This document shows, piece after piece, positions 1-26,357 of a DNA stretch of 32,282 nucleotides. Origin of the DNA: Sandaracinaceae bacterium. Lineage in GTDB: Bacteria; Myxococcota_A; Polyangia; Polyangiales; Sandaracinaceae. The notes under the pieces were generated by a model. It was given only the letters and a program-made list of their open reading frames with translations. It was not told the DNA's origin and made no database searches. The position numbers and the translations under genes are program-made. Numbering within the stretch: the first letter of the stretch is position 1; each line of letters opens with the position of its first letter. Location: the NCBI GenBank assembly GCA_044220955.1, contig JBGAQA010000082.1, forward strand, positions 1 through 32,282, read 5' to 3'.

Positions 1-90
1 CAGCCCGCCCCAGGCAACATCGGCGGCGCGGAGCGACGCGCAGGTCATCGATGGGTGGCCGGTGGGCCACGAGCTGCGTCGGGAATTGCC

Positions 91-5463: not shown

Positions 5464-6522
5464 CTAGCGCGTCGCCGGTGGCCGGGCGAGCGCGGGGTCT
5501 CCGAGGCCGGCGTGGAACGCGCGCATGCGCGCCAGGATCCGCGGGAGCGAGAGCGGGAAGGTCATGTGCCCGCCGGGGATCCACTCGATCGGCGGCCGGC
5601 CCCACTCCTCCCACTGCTGCTTCACGAGATCGGCCGTGATGTAGACGTCGTCGGTCGCCTCGACCCAGAGCTGCCTCGCGGGCGCGAGGCGCGGCTTCAT
5701 CGTCCCGAGCCCGAGCCGGCGGAAGAGCGTCTGGCGCGCGGCGCGATCGATCCCGAAGCCCTCGAGGTCGGACTTCATGCGCCACAGGATGGGCGCCTCC
5801 TCGACGGCCTCGCCGAGCTTGAGGTGTCCGATGATGGGCACGATGTAGTCGGGCGTCGGCTCCACGCACGCGAGCGCCATCGTGAGCCCCCCGCCGAGGC
5901 TGATGCCGGTGACGCCGAGCTGCTCGTAGCCGTGCTCCGCCCGCAGCCACGCCATGAGCGTGCGGACGTCGATGACCGACTGCCGCACCGACTCGACGGT
6001 GCGCACGAGGTCGGCGCTCCAGAAGAACTCGCCGTGGAAGAGCGCGCTGCGCGGGTTCCGGCTCCCGTGGAAGGGCAGCTGGATGTGCAGCACGTCCACG
6101 CCGAGCTCGTCGTGCAGGCGGGGCAAGAGGAGCGCCTCCTCGATGCCGGGCCCGGGCTCGAGCCAGCCGTGCACGTAGATCAGCGCGCGCTTGCGGGGCC
6201 CCGAGCGCGGGTGGATCCAGCGCGCCGTCACGCGCTGGTTCAGCCAGTACTCCCCGGCGTGGCGCGCGCGGTAGTGCGGGCAGAGCACGACGTGCTGGCT
6301 GTGCCAGCGCAGCGTCTCGATGACGCGCGGCCCGAGCGCGAGGCGCGGCTTCTTGCGCACGACGTCGCGCGGGACGACCGGCGTCGGGAAGAGCGTCTCG
6401 ATCGGAGCGTCGAGATAGGGCCCGAGGTCGTCCACGGTGTTGACGTGGGCGCCACGGAGCCCGTGCAGGAGGTGGGAGCCGGCGCCCACGACGCGATCGA
6501 CCGCTTCGCCGAAGGAGAGCAT
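5464..6522 (-). CDS. Alpha/beta hydrolase (ABHD18/DUF2048-like)
   Basis: ATG at 6522; oxyanion HGW, LPFHGSR, nucleophile GISLGG, acid DDVY, catalytic GGH. Confidence 0.85.
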   Translation of the reverse strand: MLSFGEAVDRVVGAGSHLLHGLRGAHVNTVDDLGPYLDAPIETLFPTPVVPRDVVRKKPRLALGPRVIETLRWHSQHVVLCPHYRARHAGEYWLNQRVTARWIHPRSGPRKRALIYVHGWLEPGPGIEEALLLPRLHDELGVDVLHIQLPFHGSRNPRSALFHGEFFWSADLVRTVESVRQSVIDVRTLMAWLRAEHGYEQLGVTGISLGGGLTMALACVEPTPDYIVPIIGHLKLGEAVEEAPILWRMKSDLEGFGIDRAARQTLFRRLGLGTMKPRLAPARQLWVEATDDVYITADLVKQQWEEWGRPPIEWIPGGHMTFPLSLPRILARMRAFHAGLGDPALARPPATR

Positions 6523-6582
6523 GCGGCTCGTTGTATCACCGAGGACGATCCGTGCGCGTCCGGACCGTCGAGCGCGCTGGGC

Positions 6583-6738
6583 GAGGGCGAGATCGAGGGC
6601 GAGATCGAAGGCGAGATCGAGATCGAGAGCGAGAGCGAGAGCGAGAGCGAGGGCGAGGGCGAGGGCGAGGGCGAGGCGAGGGCGAGGGCGAGGGCGAGGG
6701 CGAGGGCGAGGGCGAGGGCGAGGGCGAGGGGCGAGCTC
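6583..6738 (+). repeat. Tandem hexamer array (GAGNNC)n, ~25 units, left flank of the four-helix-bundle cassette
   Basis: Blocks of GAGGGC/GAGATC, then GAGAGC x4, GAGGGC x4, a 5-nt slip unit GAGGC, and GAGGGC x8. Confidence 0.95.
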
Positions 6739-6762
6739 CGAGGTCGCATCGGGGTGGGCGCT

Positions 6763-6955
6763 CTGCTCGGGGGTCCTCATCGTGCCCGCGGGCTTGTCGC
6801 GTTCAACCCCGCGCCTGCGGCGCGCCGGTGCTCGCTTCCTCCGGCTCCGCATTCGCGGAGCCTCCGTGCAGCTCCGCTCCGGAGCGACTGCATTCGCAGT
6901 CGCTGGGTTGAGCGCGCCTGCGACCCGCGGGCGGGAAGGGCTGTGCCCCGAGCAG
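6763..6955 (+). ncRNA. Putative structured leader element A (multi-stem; RNA or ssDNA) upstream of a four-helix-bundle gene
   Basis: Stems 6763-6772/6946-6955, 6784-6791/6925-6932, 6798-6809/6905-6916; hairpins 6811-6823, 6843-6862, 6883-6904; same architecture as 7675-7895 with compensatory changes. Confidence 0.6.
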
Positions 6956-6982
6956 GTCGGGGCACCAGCCAGGAGAAGCTCC

Positions 6983-7297
6983 GTGTTGAACATCTATCTC
7001 GTCTCGATTCAGCTCTGCCGCGATGTCCGGGTGATCGGTGAGCACGTCGGGCGCCACGACCGGAACCTGCTCGACCAGCTGCGGCGGGCGGTGACCAGCG
7101 TGCCGCTCAACCTCGCGGAGAGCGACGGCGTGCAGGGCGGCAACCGTCGGCAGCGGCGGCTGACGGCGCTCGGCTCAGCCAAGGAAGTTGGCGCGTGTCT
7201 CGACGTGGCGGAGGCGCTCGGGTACGCGGCGGTGGATCGGACCGTCCGAGAGCGACTGGACCACGTCATCGGCGTGCTCGTGAAGCTGACGCGCTGA
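6983..7297 (+). CDS. Four helix bundle protein (TIGR02436 / 23S rRNA IVS / Avd-like), 104 aa
   Basis: AGGAG RBS at 6971-6975, GTG start; signature DQLRRAVTSVPLNLAE...TALGSAKEV...LDVAEALGY. Confidence 0.9.
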   Translation: MLNIYLVSIQLCRDVRVIGEHVGRHDRNLLDQLRRAVTSVPLNLAESDGVQGGNRRQRRLTALGSAKEVGACLDVAEALGYAAVDRTVRERLDHVIGVLVKLTR

Positions 7298-7304
7298 GAG
7301 ATCA

Positions 7305-7336
7305 CCGAGGCCCGCGGCGACAATCACGGGCCTCGG
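7305..7336. terminator. GC-rich hairpin between convergent four-helix-bundle genes (possible bidirectional terminator or processing site)
   Basis: CCGAGGCCCG (7305-7314) is the perfect reverse complement of CGGGCCTCGG (7327-7336); no U-tract on either side. Confidence 0.5.
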
Positions 7337-7342
7337 CCCTGC

Positions 7343-7657
7343 CTACACGAGCTTGTGCAGCGTCCGCGCGATCCGATCGAGCGCGTCGACCTGCCTCGCG
7401 TCCGCGCTCACGTATCCCATCGCGTCCGCGGTCTCGAGGATGGCGCGGACCTCGTTCGCGCTCCCCATCGCGGTCTCGAACCTCGCGCGCGCGTTCCCGT
7501 TCCGCCGCCACTCCCCTTCCGCGATGTTGAGCGGCACGCTGGTCAGCGCCCGCCGCAGCTGCTTGCCGAGGTCTGCGTCGTGCTGCGCGATCTTGGTGAC
7601 GACGTCGCGCATCTCTCGCGTGATCTGGAGTGCGTCCTTGTAGATGTGCAGGCCCAT
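7343..7657 (-). CDS. Four helix bundle protein (TIGR02436 / 23S rRNA IVS / Avd-like), 104 aa
   Basis: ATG at 7657 with GGAG upstream; signature KQLRRALTSVPLNIAEG...RFETAMGSANEV...LETADAMGY. Confidence 0.92.
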   Translation of the reverse strand: MGLHIYKDALQITREMRDVVTKIAQHDADLGKQLRRALTSVPLNIAEGEWRRNGNARARFETAMGSANEVRAILETADAMGYVSADARQVDALDRIARTLHKLV

Positions 7658-7674
7658 GTTCCGTTCTCCGTTCT

Positions 7675-7895
7675 GCCCGCTCGGGGCACAGCCCCACCTC
7701 CGTCGCGCGCAGCGGCAGTCCACCCTCGGTCCGCGGAGGCGGACCGACGCGAGCGGAGCACCCCGGAGCCACGGCGAGACGTACTTCTCGCCATTCCGGT
7801 GCCCTGGCGAGGAGTGCGAGCACGCGCGCTTCGCGCAGCGAAGCGGGGTGGACGGCCGCGAGCACGACGGCACCATTCTCCAACCCCGAGCGGGC
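7675..7895 (-). ncRNA. Putative structured leader element B, homologous to element A
   Basis: Outer 12-bp stem 7884-7895/7675-7686, GTCCACCC/GGGTGGAC stem (7846-7853/7718-7725) and three internal hairpins; shares motifs GTGCTCGC, GCTCCGCTC and GGGCTGTGCCCCGAGC with element A. Confidence 0.6.
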
Positions 7896-7955
7896 CACCG
7901 GATTTCTCGTCCTCATTCGAGCGGCGAGTCCGGCCGAAGGCCGGAGAGCCCGAGA

Positions 7956-8086
7956 GAGAGCGAGGTCGAGAGCGAGGTCGAGAGCGAGGTCGAGAGCGAG
8001 GTCGAGAGCGAGGTCGAGAGCGAGGTCGAGAGCGAGGTCGAGAGCGAGGTCGAGAGCGAGGTCGAGGTCGAGGTCGAGGTCGAGGC
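7956..8086 (+). repeat. Tandem array (GAGAGCGAGGTC)x9 + (GAGGTC)x3, right flank of the four-helix-bundle cassette
   Basis: Perfect dodecamer higher-order repeat of two GAGNNC hexamers, read directly from the sequence. Confidence 0.97.
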
Positions 8087-8100
8087 GAGCGCGGAGCCCC

Positions 8101-8643
8101 TCAGTGCACCACGTGCTCGTGCACGCTCGCGCCGCCCTCGACGGCCGTGCCGTAGATGTCCGCGAAGCGGAGCGAGCCCGGGCTCTCGCCGAGCGTGAGG
8201 TGCACGTGATCGAGGTACGCGTCGGTCCCCGCGATCGTCAGCGTCGCGCGCGCGGTACAGCCGTGCGGCGCGCGCGCCGTGTGCACCTCCAGGTGTCGCG
8301 ACGAGAGCGCGCGGATCTGGATCAGCATGGTCATGCCGTCCTCTCGCGTCTCGGTGACGCGCTGCGAGCCGACGCCGTATACCGGCCCCTCGAACATGTT
8401 GAGGCCGTGCGTGACGCGGCCGTCCGCGCCGTTCTCGAACTCGCGCCAGTACACCTCCATCGGCGAGCCGCTCGCGGGGTGACAGCTGGTGTCGAGGTGG
8501 ATGCCGTAGTCGACGCGGTTGCGGTCGTCGCTCTTGTCGATGAAGAAGATCGTCGGCACGTCGTGCCGCTCGAACTGCACGTCGGCGCGCGCGATGCCCA
8601 CGACGCCGAGCACGACGAGCGCGATCGTCGTAGCGCGCCTCAT
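8101..8643 (-). CDS. DUF4833-like secreted protein
   Basis: ATG at 8643 overlaps the upstream stop; signal peptide; IFFIDKSDDRNRVDYGIHLD...VYWR...LNMFEGPVYGV pattern. Confidence 0.75.
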   Translation of the reverse strand: MRRATTIALVVLGVVGIARADVQFERHDVPTIFFIDKSDDRNRVDYGIHLDTSCHPASGSPMEVYWREFENGADGRVTHGLNMFEGPVYGVGSQRVTETREDGMTMLIQIRALSSRHLEVHTARAPHGCTARATLTIAGTDAYLDHVHLTLGESPGSLRFADIYGTAVEGGASVHEHVVH

Positions 8644-23383: not shown

Positions 23384-23911
23384 ATGCCACACGACGTTGC
23401 GAAGCTCGATCTCCCGTCCCGTGAGCGTGCCGAGCGCGCGATTCTCATCCTGCGCGGGCAGCGCGTGATGCTCGATGAAGAGCTCGCAGTGCTCTATGGC
23501 GTCGAGGTCAAGGCGCTCAACCAGGCGACGAAACGGAACCGGGAGCGCTTCCCGAGCGACTTCATGTTCCAGCTGACCTCCGACGAGGTTCGTGCTTTGC
23601 GGTCACAAATCGTGACCGCAAAGTCGAGGCGCGGTGGGCGCCGCTCCGCTCCCTATGCGTTCACCGAGCACGGGGTTGCGATGCTCTCGAGCGTGCTGAG
23701 GAGCCCGCGCGCAGTTCGGGTGAACATCGAGATCATGCGCGCATTCGGCCGCCTGCGGCAAATGTTGCAGGAGAACGCCGAGCTCGCCCGGCGGCTCGAC
23801 GAGCTGGAGAAGAAGTACGACGCACGCTTCCGGATCGTGTTCGACGCCATCCGCGAGCTCACGTCCCCGCCGGGCCTGCCGCGCCGACCGATCGGATTTC
23901 GGTCTCCGTGA
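23384..23911 (+). CDS. ORF6N-domain (KilA-N-like) DNA-binding protein
   Basis: [62 protein letters not shown]-terminal RPIGF. Confidence 0.93.
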
Positions 23912-24795: not shown

Positions 24796-25743
24796 TCAGA
24801 GCGGGCGCGTGAGCACGCTGCCGAGGCCGGCGCCGGCCACGAGGTGCGTGCGGGTCGCGCACGCGCCGACGATCTCTCTCTGATCGCCCTCGCCGAAGTC
24901 GTACGAGGTGAGCGCGCTCTGCCAGGTGCCGTCGGCGCGCTCGAAGACGCCCACGCTCGTCGCCGCCCAGACGCGGCCGCCCTGCGCGCTGACCTGGCGG
25001 AGCTCGTCGCCGAGCGGCGGCGGGATGGCGATCCACTCACGACCGTTCCAGCGCAGGACGATCGGCGTCGCGCCGCGCGCGGACCACGCCCACACCTCCG
25101 ACGCGCTCACGGCGAAGAGGCCTCCGAGCGTGACGTCGGTGCCGCTCGCGCTGCGCGCCCAGGCGCGTCCGTCCCAGTGCATCAGCGTGCCGCCCTGGCC
25201 CGCGGTCCAGAGATCGCCCGGGCCGGTGCCGGCGACGGCCGAGAGGTCGCGCCAGGTGCCGGCGTCGTACGTGCGCAGGTCCGTTCCATCGCGGCGCGCG
25301 ATCCAGCCGCGCCCCACGGCGTACACGTCCGCACCGACCGACGCGAGGCCGCCGAAGGGATCATAGCGACCGGCCGACGCACGCGTCGCGATCGACCACG
25401 CGCTGCCGTCCCAGCTCGCGACGCGTCCGCTCGCCTCGACGAGCACGCCGGTGGGCGTCGCCTCGAGGTGCGTGCCGTACGTGCGGCCCTCGCCGTAGCC
25501 GGGGATCTCCGGGAGCTCGTGCCACGCGCTGCCGTCCCACTCGGCGACCCCGCCGCCCCAGCCGCGCGCGTAGGCGCGATCGGCGGAGCAGGCGACGGCG
25601 TTCACGTCGGTGAGGCGGCGCAGGCGCGAGGTGAGCGACCAGCCGTTCGAGAGCGCGATGGTCTCGCCCTGGGCGAGAGCGAGGGCGGGAGCGAGAGCGA
25701 GAGCGAGAGCGAGAGCGAGAGCGGGTGCGAGAGCGCGGGTCAT
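24796..25743 (-). CDS. Secreted beta-propeller repeat protein (WDGxxW repeats)
   Basis: ATGA overlap; (AL)n signal peptide encoded by hexamer repeats; repeats WDGSAW x2, WDGRAW, WNGREW. Confidence 0.82.
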   Translation of the reverse strand: MTRALAPALALALALALAPALALAQGETIALSNGWSLTSRLRRLTDVNAVACSADRAYARGWGGGVAEWDGSAWHELPEIPGYGEGRTYGTHLEATPTGVLVEASGRVASWDGSAWSIATRASAGRYDPFGGLASVGADVYAVGRGWIARRDGTDLRTYDAGTWRDLSAVAGTGPGDLWTAGQGGTLMHWDGRAWARSASGTDVTLGGLFAVSASEVWAWSARGATPIVLRWNGREWIAIPPPLGDELRQVSAQGGRVWAATSVGVFERADGTWQSALTSYDFGEGDQREIVGACATRTHLVAGAGLGSVLTRPL

Positions 25744-25926
25744 CGGCGCCTCCGCGTGATCGCGAGGGCCGCGAGGGCGAGGGCGAGGGCGAGGGCGGGC
25801 GTGGTCGGACCGGCGCCAGCGGCGGCACAGCTGCACGAGGGCGAGGGCGAGGTCGAGGTCGAGGTCGAGGTCGAGGTCGAGGTCGAGGTCGAGCGCGAGG
25901 GCGAGGGCGAGGGCGAGGGCGAGGGC
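25675..25926 (+). repeat. Three intragenic GAGNNC hexamer runs (25675-25734, 25773-25796, 25837-25926)
   Basis: GAGAGC/GAGGGC/GAGGTC units, read on the minus strand as (Ala-Leu)n, (Ser-Pro)n and (Thr-Ser)n. Confidence 0.92.
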
Positions 25927-26357
25927 GAGCCCGTCGGCAGGCTCGGAAGTTCATCGGGGACGCAGAAGCTCGCCTCGCGGCAGCTCGGATCGCCCGTCAG
26001 CGTCCCGGCCGTGGGCGGCGGCGGCTCCTCGTCGCCGCGGCACGCGGCTGCCGGCTCGCAGCTCCCGACGACCACATCGACCTCGTCGGGCGAGGGCGGC
26101 GGATCGCGGAATTGCCCGAGGCCGCCCGGCGGGATGCTCGCGCGCCGGGTGCACACGCGGTACGCGCGGCAGTGGCCGCCGGTGCTCGCGCAGTCCGCGT
26201 CGCTCGCGCACACGGCCGGCTCGCACCACTGTCCCGAGTGCGACGAGCGCCCGACGGCGCCGGGCGGGCAGGCCGGCGGGCCGTCGATCGCATCGGCGCG
26301 GGCCGCGAGCGGCGAGACCGTGAACAGCAGGACGAGCAGTGTTGCGGCGCGCTTCAT
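25740..26357 (-). CDS. Cys-rich surface protein with MYXO-CTERM sorting signal
   Basis: Signal peptide MKRAATLLVLL...ARA; Cys-rich domain; S/P/T linker; SCSCAAAG + hydrophobic helix + RRRR. Confidence 0.85.
   Translation of the reverse strand: MKRAATLLVLLFTVSPLAARADAIDGPPACPPGAVGRSSHSGQWCEPAVCASDADCASTGGHCRAYRVCTRRASIPPGGLGQFRDPPPSPDEVDVVVGSCEPAAACRGDEEPPPPTAGTLTGDPSCREASFCVPDELPSLPTGSPSPSPSPSPSRSTSTSTSTSTSTSTSPSPSCSCAAAGAGPTTPALALALALAALAITRRRR

Follow-up and report, generated by a model that had tools for sequence, protein, structure and literature searches.

The locus analysed here is a cassette of ~1.5 kb at positions 6583..8086 of a 32,282-nt stretch of DNA (the window, which always means this whole stretch) from a Sandaracinaceae bacterium, whose metagenome-assembled genome (MAG; G000) comprises 7.5 Mb in 301 contigs at 88% completeness and 72.5% GC. 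From left to right, the cassette is composed of a (GAGNNC)n hexamer array, leader A, gene A, a hairpin, the convergent gene B, leader B and a second (GAGNNC)n array. Gene A (6983..7297, + strand, GTG start) and gene B (7343..7657, − strand, ATG start, subtype B1) each encode a four-helix-bundle protein of 104 aa of the family PF05635/TIGR02436. Between the two stop codons lies a GC-rich hairpin (7305..7336) with a minimum free energy (MFE) of −23.6 kcal/mol and a z score of −3.6, by its predicted fold a candidate two-way transcription stop; a truncated copy of the cassette on contig C5 has a comparable hairpin. A scan of 6400-8200 for promoter and terminator consensus sequences gave 0 sites, the consensus being uninformative for a myxobacterium of 72% GC. 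Each gene is preceded by a predicted structured 5′ leader RNA: leader A occupies 6726..6982 (+ strand, core 6760-6958), with helices P1, P2 and P3 and a multi-branch junction, and leader B occupies 7658..7955 (− strand, core 7674-7896).

The left hexamer array (6583..6725, + strand) is built from the units GAGGGC, GAGAGC and GAGATC, with a 5-nt slip near 6673; Tandem Repeats Finder (TRF) places it at 6579-6735 with a period of 6 and 26.2 copies, and the variable dinucleotide is GG in 14 units, AT in 4 and AG in 4. The right array (7956..8081, + strand) is an alternation (GAGAGC GAGGTC)n, placed by TRF at 7956-8093 with a period of 12, 11.6 copies and 96% matches. Lying ~37 nt (left) and ~60 nt (right) from the leader cores, the two arrays share one strand polarity, so that the left array reads GAGNNC in the sense of gene A and the right array GNNCTC in the sense of gene B. 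Because both are GAGNNC on the + strand, the cassette is polar and mirror symmetry is ruled out. That either array is coding sequence of a flanking gene was rejected, given the slip in the left array and flanking windows without coding periodicity.

An earlier account of this DNA, made from the letters alone (the sequence-only reading), had called the cassette symmetric, which the direct arrays contradict. The remainder of what it described at the locus was borne out: two convergent 104-aa four-helix-bundle genes, both above the curated cut-offs of PF05635 and TIGR02436; about 45 identical residues without gaps; a homologous ~200-nt multi-stem element before each gene; a GAGNNC array outside each leader, found by TRF and by regular expression; and no transposase, reverse transcriptase (RT) or rRNA nearby. 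The Rfam scan found no gathering-score match in the window and, in 6000-8600 at E up to 10, two chance-level matches only (E 2.6 and 6.6); among the 22 open reading frames (ORFs) of the window, no transposase, RT or integrase was matched in Pfam. As an observation, the account is thus partly confirmed.

Against PF05635 (cut-off 33.8), gene A scores 44.9 bits and gene B 61 bits, and against TIGR02436 (cut-off 24) the scores are 47.2 and 58.4. The two proteins are 45% identical (BLASTP, 45/101, ungapped), and the C-terminus of gene A, ...DHVIGVLVKLTR, is conserved across the A-type copies. With dN/dS values of 0.14-0.22 for close paralogues, comparison of the copies indicates that both proteins are under purifying selection. 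The AlphaFold2 model of gene B has four helices and a mean confidence (pLDDT) of 89.5. Its top Foldseek matches are 2RLD, with a template-modelling (TM) score of up to 0.87, and 2GSC, both of which are entries of five chains; these are followed by Avd, the protein of diversity-generating retroelements (DGRs), with 8UB7_E, Avd within the DGR ribonucleoprotein, at a TM score of 0.72 and 4DWL_D, free Avd, at 0.71. At the level of sequence, 2GSC was matched and 2RLD marginally, and Avd gave no match. A 44-nt stretch of the two genes, 7076-7119 (+) and 7518-7561 (−), forms an inverted repeat of 95% identity and encodes the most conserved motif of the PF05635 family (QLRRA.TSVPLN.AE); strong codon bias may account for this identity, with gene conversion or RNA pairing within read-through transcripts as alternatives.

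The fold shared with Avd (TM score 0.71-0.72 at a sequence identity of 8-9%) raises the reading that A and B are domesticated Avd-like cofactors of a DGR, another retroelement or a defence system encoded elsewhere. In two papers that touch on the family, PF05635 is said to resemble Avd and to be the commonest family around DGR RTs in one survey (PMC10053308), and to be among the new associations of CRISPR adaptation modules (PMC10910872). The window, however, holds no RT, no template/variable repeat and no defence gene, whereas Avd of DGRs is encoded beside an RT with such repeats, and neither protein matched any PADLOC 2.0 defence model at E up to 1. The genome has four RTs, all on other contigs, three of group II intron type and one unclassified, with none recognised as DGR-type; a retron or DGR was accordingly rejected for the locus itself. 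The unclassified RT (C111:218068-218703) lies in an ORF of 775 aa, with an RT domain of 48 bits, a long N-terminal region without a Pfam match and no maturase domain. Furthermore, a set of at least 10 copies, accompanied by truncated relics, has the look of a selfish element and not of a domesticated one, and we regard domestication as very improbable.

Leaders A and B share homology with one another, as they do with the upstream regions of the remaining copies. From 12 aligned sequences, cut back to the outer helix, RNAalifold predicts 36 pairs, 15 of them with compensatory changes; paired cells amount to 93.7%, against 83.2% in shuffles (0/500 reach the observed value), and fall to 38-49% when the partners are slid by 1-3 columns. 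The helices contain 33 G-U pairs against 1 A-C pair, an excess that favours the sense strand as the folded one, in a test for which the structure itself was predicted on the sense strand. Taken singly, the leaders have MFE z scores of −4.4 (A) and −4.6 (B) relative to shuffles, and in the covariance model they score 140 and 157 bits. At the level of sequence comparison, then, the leaders are conserved RNA structures of the sense strand. In the organism's own genome, 11/11 matches of the model lie directly 5′ of PF05635 genes, with nhmmer adding only two short fragments, and a further 11 non-seed matches in seven other genera of the same family each stand directly before a PF05635 gene; the model found no match in the examined loci of three further genomes, G019, G028 and G033 (6 loci each; related genomes are numbered G, contigs of this genome C).

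Both leaders lie directly before the ribosome-binding site (RBS). In leader A, the 3′ strand of the outer helix, P1, has a competitor in a local hairpin (6939-6970) just 5′ of the Shine-Dalgarno sequence AGGAGA (6971-6976, +), and leader B has GGAG ~9 nt before its ATG. At its other end, leader B has a hairpin with a UUCG loop (7928-7946) that abuts the right array, and its 5′ hairpin covaries between B1 and B2 copies in an alignment read by eye. Each gene would be transcribed together with its leader as a structured 5′ untranslated region that gates translation, and we consider translational control by the leaders probable. In its favour we count the leaders of a second lineage (G032, below), where a plain hairpin buries the RBS. 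Feedback through binding by the encoded Avd-like oligomer is plausible but falls somewhat short of probable. By analogy, self-regulating leaders such as those of ribosomal-protein operons and other translational operators likewise place a conserved, covarying 5′ structure directly before the RBS of a small nucleic-acid-binding protein; the leaders of the cassette match no Rfam family.

Within the genome, PF05635 has 15 matches, 14 of them over the cut-off, and convergent pairs are found on C282, C247, C159 and C105. A BLAST search with the whole cassette gives near-full copies on C247, C159 (a contig of 1237 bp with nothing else on it) and C105, partial copies at the contig ends of C10, C36, C53, C40, C117 and C28, and truncated internal copies on C5 and C241. 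The copies are 75-88% identical in DNA, and their homology ends at the arrays. By eye, A-type copies of one genome group together in the alignment, and A partners with either of two B subtypes. One gene B copy (C36:15220-15428) has an internal gap of ~90 nt, and contigs of metagenome DNA (runs X2 and X3, on window 7411-7542) carry variants and, within gene B, a skip of 130 nt whose probable source is a paralogue; such internally deleted copies look like decaying copies beside intact ones.

The arrays go with the genes at a set distance and in a set direction. An array lies 260-340 nt upstream in 9/10 PF05635 genes that have enough upstream contig to be evaluated (the exception is on C128); the chance that a randomly placed 150-nt segment touches an array is p = 0.0056, which for 9/10 gives p = 5e-20. 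Reading GAGNNC in the sense of gene A holds for 12/13 cassette-flanking arrays here and for 8/8 congener loci. There is also a rare unit, GAGTTC, of which the genome has 41, all in 5 arrays: three of the five, with 28 units between them, stand beside B-type genes at separate loci, and another is at a contig start. That this variant travels with one gene subtype argues that arrays are copied along with the cassette. We conclude from these comparisons that the cassette is a multi-copy unit which duplicates together with its arrays. The sequence-only reading had proposed array, structured element and gene as a unit, and the three parts do recur together in this genome, in its congeners and in other genera, with GAGTTC following the gene subtype. 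Neither of two outcomes that it had named as speaking against this was found: family members do not generally lack the element and the array (arrays at 9/10, leaders directly before the genes), and arrays near these genes are far more frequent than at random.

The hexamer itself is widely scattered. Called by regular expression with at least 6 units, GAGNNC arrays number 158 on both strands and 152 after merging (at least 36 nt). On the forward strand alone there are 88, against 0-4 for seven control words, so that GAGNNC, with many arrays of one unit and far above related words, is a dispersed short tandem repeat. The variable dinucleotide is mostly AG (873), GG (601) or GT (350); by sequence, (GAGGGC)n fits the quadruplex pattern G3N3G3N3G3N3G3, which GAGAGC and GAGGTC units do not. 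Only ~15/152 arrays flank cassettes. No orientation bias toward neighbouring genes was seen, and within 1.5 kb of arrays no transposase recurs. The only protein family that does recur at this distance is PF05635, beside 9 arrays as against 3 for the next best.

A second repeated element of ~100 nt, with two GC-rich hairpins and no gene, adjoins about ten GAGNNC arrays on their upstream side, at window 1-90 (array at 91-232) and on C249, C17, C254, C255 (twice), C53, C28 and C240; it may be a relic, or one more element carried by the arrays.

With arrays about ten times as numerous as cassettes and indifferent to the orientation of their neighbours, one may ask whether the two belong together at all. 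A and B could be ordinary, vertically inherited host paralogues with a self-regulating leader, beside independent slippage-prone repeats, comparable to the heptamers of Xanthomonas and Nostoc, which they meet only because both share permissive, recombination-prone intergenic gaps. Such a view would be in keeping with the age of the paralogues (75-88% identity) and their purifying selection, and with dispersed 7-nt repeats that are reported without a linked gene in two papers (PMC4692102, PMC4679880). It fits poorly with the constant distance and with the polarity rule (12/13 arrays here, 13/13 in G032), with a rare unit that travels with one gene subtype, with the lack of any other gene family that recurs beside arrays, and with the absence of the whole array-cassette-array block from an otherwise collinear site in four congeners. 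On this basis we think it unlikely.

The site in question is that of the C5 copy, where a block of array, leader B, gene B, hairpin, the last 29 nt of gene A and array lies between two convergent genes. In the congeners G003, G004, G005 and G002, the same flanking genes are 15, 42, 113 and 196 nt apart, respectively, with no array and no cassette; in the fifth congener, G001, they are on different contigs. The empty gap holds a different ~100-nt hairpin repeat in two of these species, with one copy in G005 and two in tandem in G002; this one gap attracts small elements that differ from species to species. Conversely, a cassette of G005 corresponds here to a solo (CTCGCC)n array (C36:11730-11818) beside the same downstream gene, a cassette on G003:C167 to an array-free gap on C15, and a cassette on G003:C69 to an array at the contig start on C75. 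By comparison of the genomes, copies have been gained or lost between species, and the vertical conservation without presence/absence variation that would have counted against a mobile module is not what the empty and solo-array sites display.

The window copy and the C241 copy both lie at synteny breakpoints, the flanks of the latter being 760 kb apart in G005. Outside the cassette, the window copy is flanked by an alpha/beta hydrolase gene (5464..6522, −) on the left and by a DUF4833 gene (8101..8643, −) on the right. DUF4833 is conserved in 5/5 congeners with different neighbours and no adjacent array or cassette, and neither array nor cassette adjoins the hydrolase orthologues, which lie in G001 and on two metagenome contigs at 83% identity. 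The empty hydrolase-to-DUF4833 junction that the sequence-only reading would have had compared was sought, but no clean one was found, the neighbours differing on both flanks in the relatives.

The wider comparison covered 41 related genomes, in all of which GAGNNC was counted; a second word, CTGNCN, was counted in 5 genomes. Cassette DNA matches 27 of the 41. All 16 genomes with at least 10 GAGNNC windows carry PF05635, all 14 genomes without PF05635 have 0-4 such windows, and in 11 genomes PF05635 is present with few windows (Fisher's p = 1.4e-4, Spearman's rho 0.70, both overstated since the genomes are kin). An array stands 210-390 nt upstream of PF05635 at 5/6 loci of G012, 4/6 of G033 and 2/6 of G019. 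Like G032, G033 belongs to another family than the window genome, and its hexamer is GAGNCC.

G032 (62% GC) looked free of GAGNNC arrays; its 8 convergent PF05635 pairs lie in a ~950-bp cassette whose copies are 86-88% identical. Here CTGNCN arrays flank the pair in 7/7 loci, and 13/13 of them read in the sense of the first gene, P1; CTGNCN windows number 750 in this genome against 9 for a control pattern, and there are none in the window genome. The leaders are ~100-nt hairpins (z −6.9 and −8.0) with the RBS in the 3′ arm. As the two G032 proteins are 55% identical to each other and 40-47% to A or B (over longer alignments), the pair either arose more than once or was homogenised. The same polar build, with a different hexamer, thus occurs in another family of the order. 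Farther afield, tandem repeats of 6-7 nt lie within ~200 nt of the PF05635 gene in 7/8 loci outside the genus (a Polyangiaceae MAG, a Polyangiales MAG, Binatia and five Chloroflexota), in two of which heptamer arms are inverted.

A hexamer that changes by lineage (GAGNNC, CTGNCN, GAGNCC in G033) within a constant build could mean that arrays are products of the cassette: its proteins or leader RNA, possibly aided by an RT in trans, would direct or stimulate synthesis or expansion of the hexamer, each cassette lineage would specify its own, and arrays elsewhere would be footprints. This would agree with the finding of arrays only in genomes that carry PF05635, with arrays that abut truncated cassettes at varying break points (C5, C53, C241 and G003:C69), and with a fold resembling Avd, which works with an RT, in a genome that holds four RTs. 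Three of these four are of group II intron type, however, none is near a cassette, and inspection of the leaders by eye revealed nothing resembling a template copy of the hexamer. Arrays also lie in frame inside genes, and an orthologous array is kept in two species (flanks 76% identical) of which one alone has the cassette, so that arrays can persist without a local cassette. We give this explanation little weight.

Among the closest known elements are the intervening sequences of 23S rRNA, which in Leptospira, Coxiella and others encode an S23p/PF05635 protein. Like the cassette, they are small inserts, present or absent between relatives, that bracket a PF05635 gene with repeats and have no enzyme of their own. 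Unlike them, the cassette lies outside rRNA, has two convergent genes and a covarying leader with a ~200-nt core for each, and, in place of complementary arms that form a stem, is flanked by direct hexamer arrays of the same polarity that cannot pair. With no rRNA or other Rfam family in the window, an rRNA intervening sequence was rejected, as was a transposon, insertion sequence or miniature inverted-repeat element, there being no transposase in the window or near arrays and no terminal inverted repeat or target duplication at the C5 junction.

The arrays have their own counterparts. The STRR sequences of cyanobacteria are dispersed short tandem repeats. Heptamers of this kind are GGGGAYT in Nostoc and GGGAATC in Xanthomonas, the latter with ~186 arrays per genome including 70-75 convergent pairs (Rehm et al. 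2015, PMC4692102), and TAACTGA in Beggiatoaceae (PMC4679880). Dispersed heptamers and GAGNNC arrays alike number in the hundreds, lie mostly between genes, vary in length and are of unknown origin; the unit is 6 nt in GAGNNC arrays versus 7 nt in GGGAATC, GGGGAYT and TAACTGA repeats. In the passages of PMC4692102 and PMC4679880 that describe them, the repeats are linked to no gene family, and the PF05635 family is not mentioned. Searching under the family names, with supplements outside the search, we found no published link between PF05635 and dispersed repeats.

On balance, we favour reading the locus as one copy of a polar, enzyme-less selfish cassette with the arrays as part of the unit. 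Lacking any enzyme of its own, such a cassette would rely for relocation on recombination by the host, or on slippage, at dispersed arrays: its two direct arrays would allow it to loop out and to re-enter at any other array, which would leave behind solo arrays and rearrangement junctions. By binding nucleic acid of repeat or leader, the four-helix-bundle proteins would favour persistence of the cassette or the arrays. Relocation at arrays would explain the direct flanking arrays, the solo arrays, the breakpoints and the truncated copies that end in arrays, and we put it forward tentatively, as rather less assured than the selfish cassette itself. The small mobile or selfish module of the sequence-only reading finds support in copy number, truncated copies and presence/absence, but movement, an enzyme of its own and a target duplication were not found; the idea that the arrays are special to these genes does not stand, with most arrays having no module beside them and some lying inside coding sequence. 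As an interpretation it is, overall, partly supported.

Several observations weigh against a selfish cassette that includes its arrays and moves by them. About 137/152 arrays have no adjacent cassette, and some are coding: 17/152 are candidate in-frame internal arrays, mostly (Glu-X)n by a crude test of GC at third codon positions, and the array at window 25660-25745 (−) encodes (Leu-Ala)n as the hydrophobic core of a signal peptide. Arrays can thus exist and persist on their own, and hexamer repeats can be recruited into coding sequence. Within the family, the rule has exceptions: the C128 copy has a leader and no strict array, the C40 copy an array and an unrelated leader region, the right array of the truncated C5 copy is inverted, and an array is near PF05635 in 0/6 loci of G008 and 0/6 of G028. 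That four congeners lack an array at the empty C5 site speaks against a pre-existing array target there, and against the four empty sites the C5 junction displays neither target duplication nor terminal inverted repeat; recombination at arrays explains neither this array-free site nor the first origin of arrays. No movement was seen, no near-identical pair of copies and no linked recombinase. Transcription is evidenced by a single contig of 157 nt from an oligo-dT RNA library on 7091-7247, in gene A, which is weak because DNA carry-over is possible, and zero RNA cover elsewhere in the stretch proves nothing. Finally, copy numbers and joins are uncertain in a MAG that is 88% complete in 301 contigs, and the tests of PF05635 against arrays overstate significance in a set of related genomes.

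Two further features of the window may be recorded. The signal peptide encoded by the array at 25660-25745 (−) begins MTRALAPALALALALALALAPALALA, then QG; further arrays lie upstream of its gene at 25771-25797 and 25836-25929, and the gene beside these arrays (25673-25932) is not syntenic in the congeners. Amid housekeeping genes, a protein with an ORF6N domain (119 bits) is encoded at 23384-23908 (+); the ORF6N domain is common in phage and antirepressor-like proteins.

To our knowledge, PF05635 is a large family without a known function outside DGRs, and the origin of dispersed 6-9-nt arrays such as STRR, GGGAATC and TAACTGA has been open for decades. The locus described here ties the two together, through a repeat word specific to the lineage, a new covarying leader RNA, and sites that are filled, empty or occupied by a solo array. 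In practice, cassettes and arrays break short-read assemblies, with many copies at contig ends. A bolder reading, which we hold to be doubtful though worth stating, is that PF05635 cassettes are the drivers or obligate partners of scattered families of 6-9-nt repeats, with each lineage setting or recognising a word of its own (in this genome GAGNNC, in a second family of the order CTGNCN, and in other phyla heptamers) and the protein-RNA pair seeding, spreading or maintaining the arrays; if it were true, an entire category of “simple repeats” in bacteria would have been left behind by a single, very small selfish nucleoprotein element. Should the proteins bind either leader or repeat, this would be the first function of PF05635 outside retroelements, and it would explain a source of rearrangement in the large genomes of myxobacteria.

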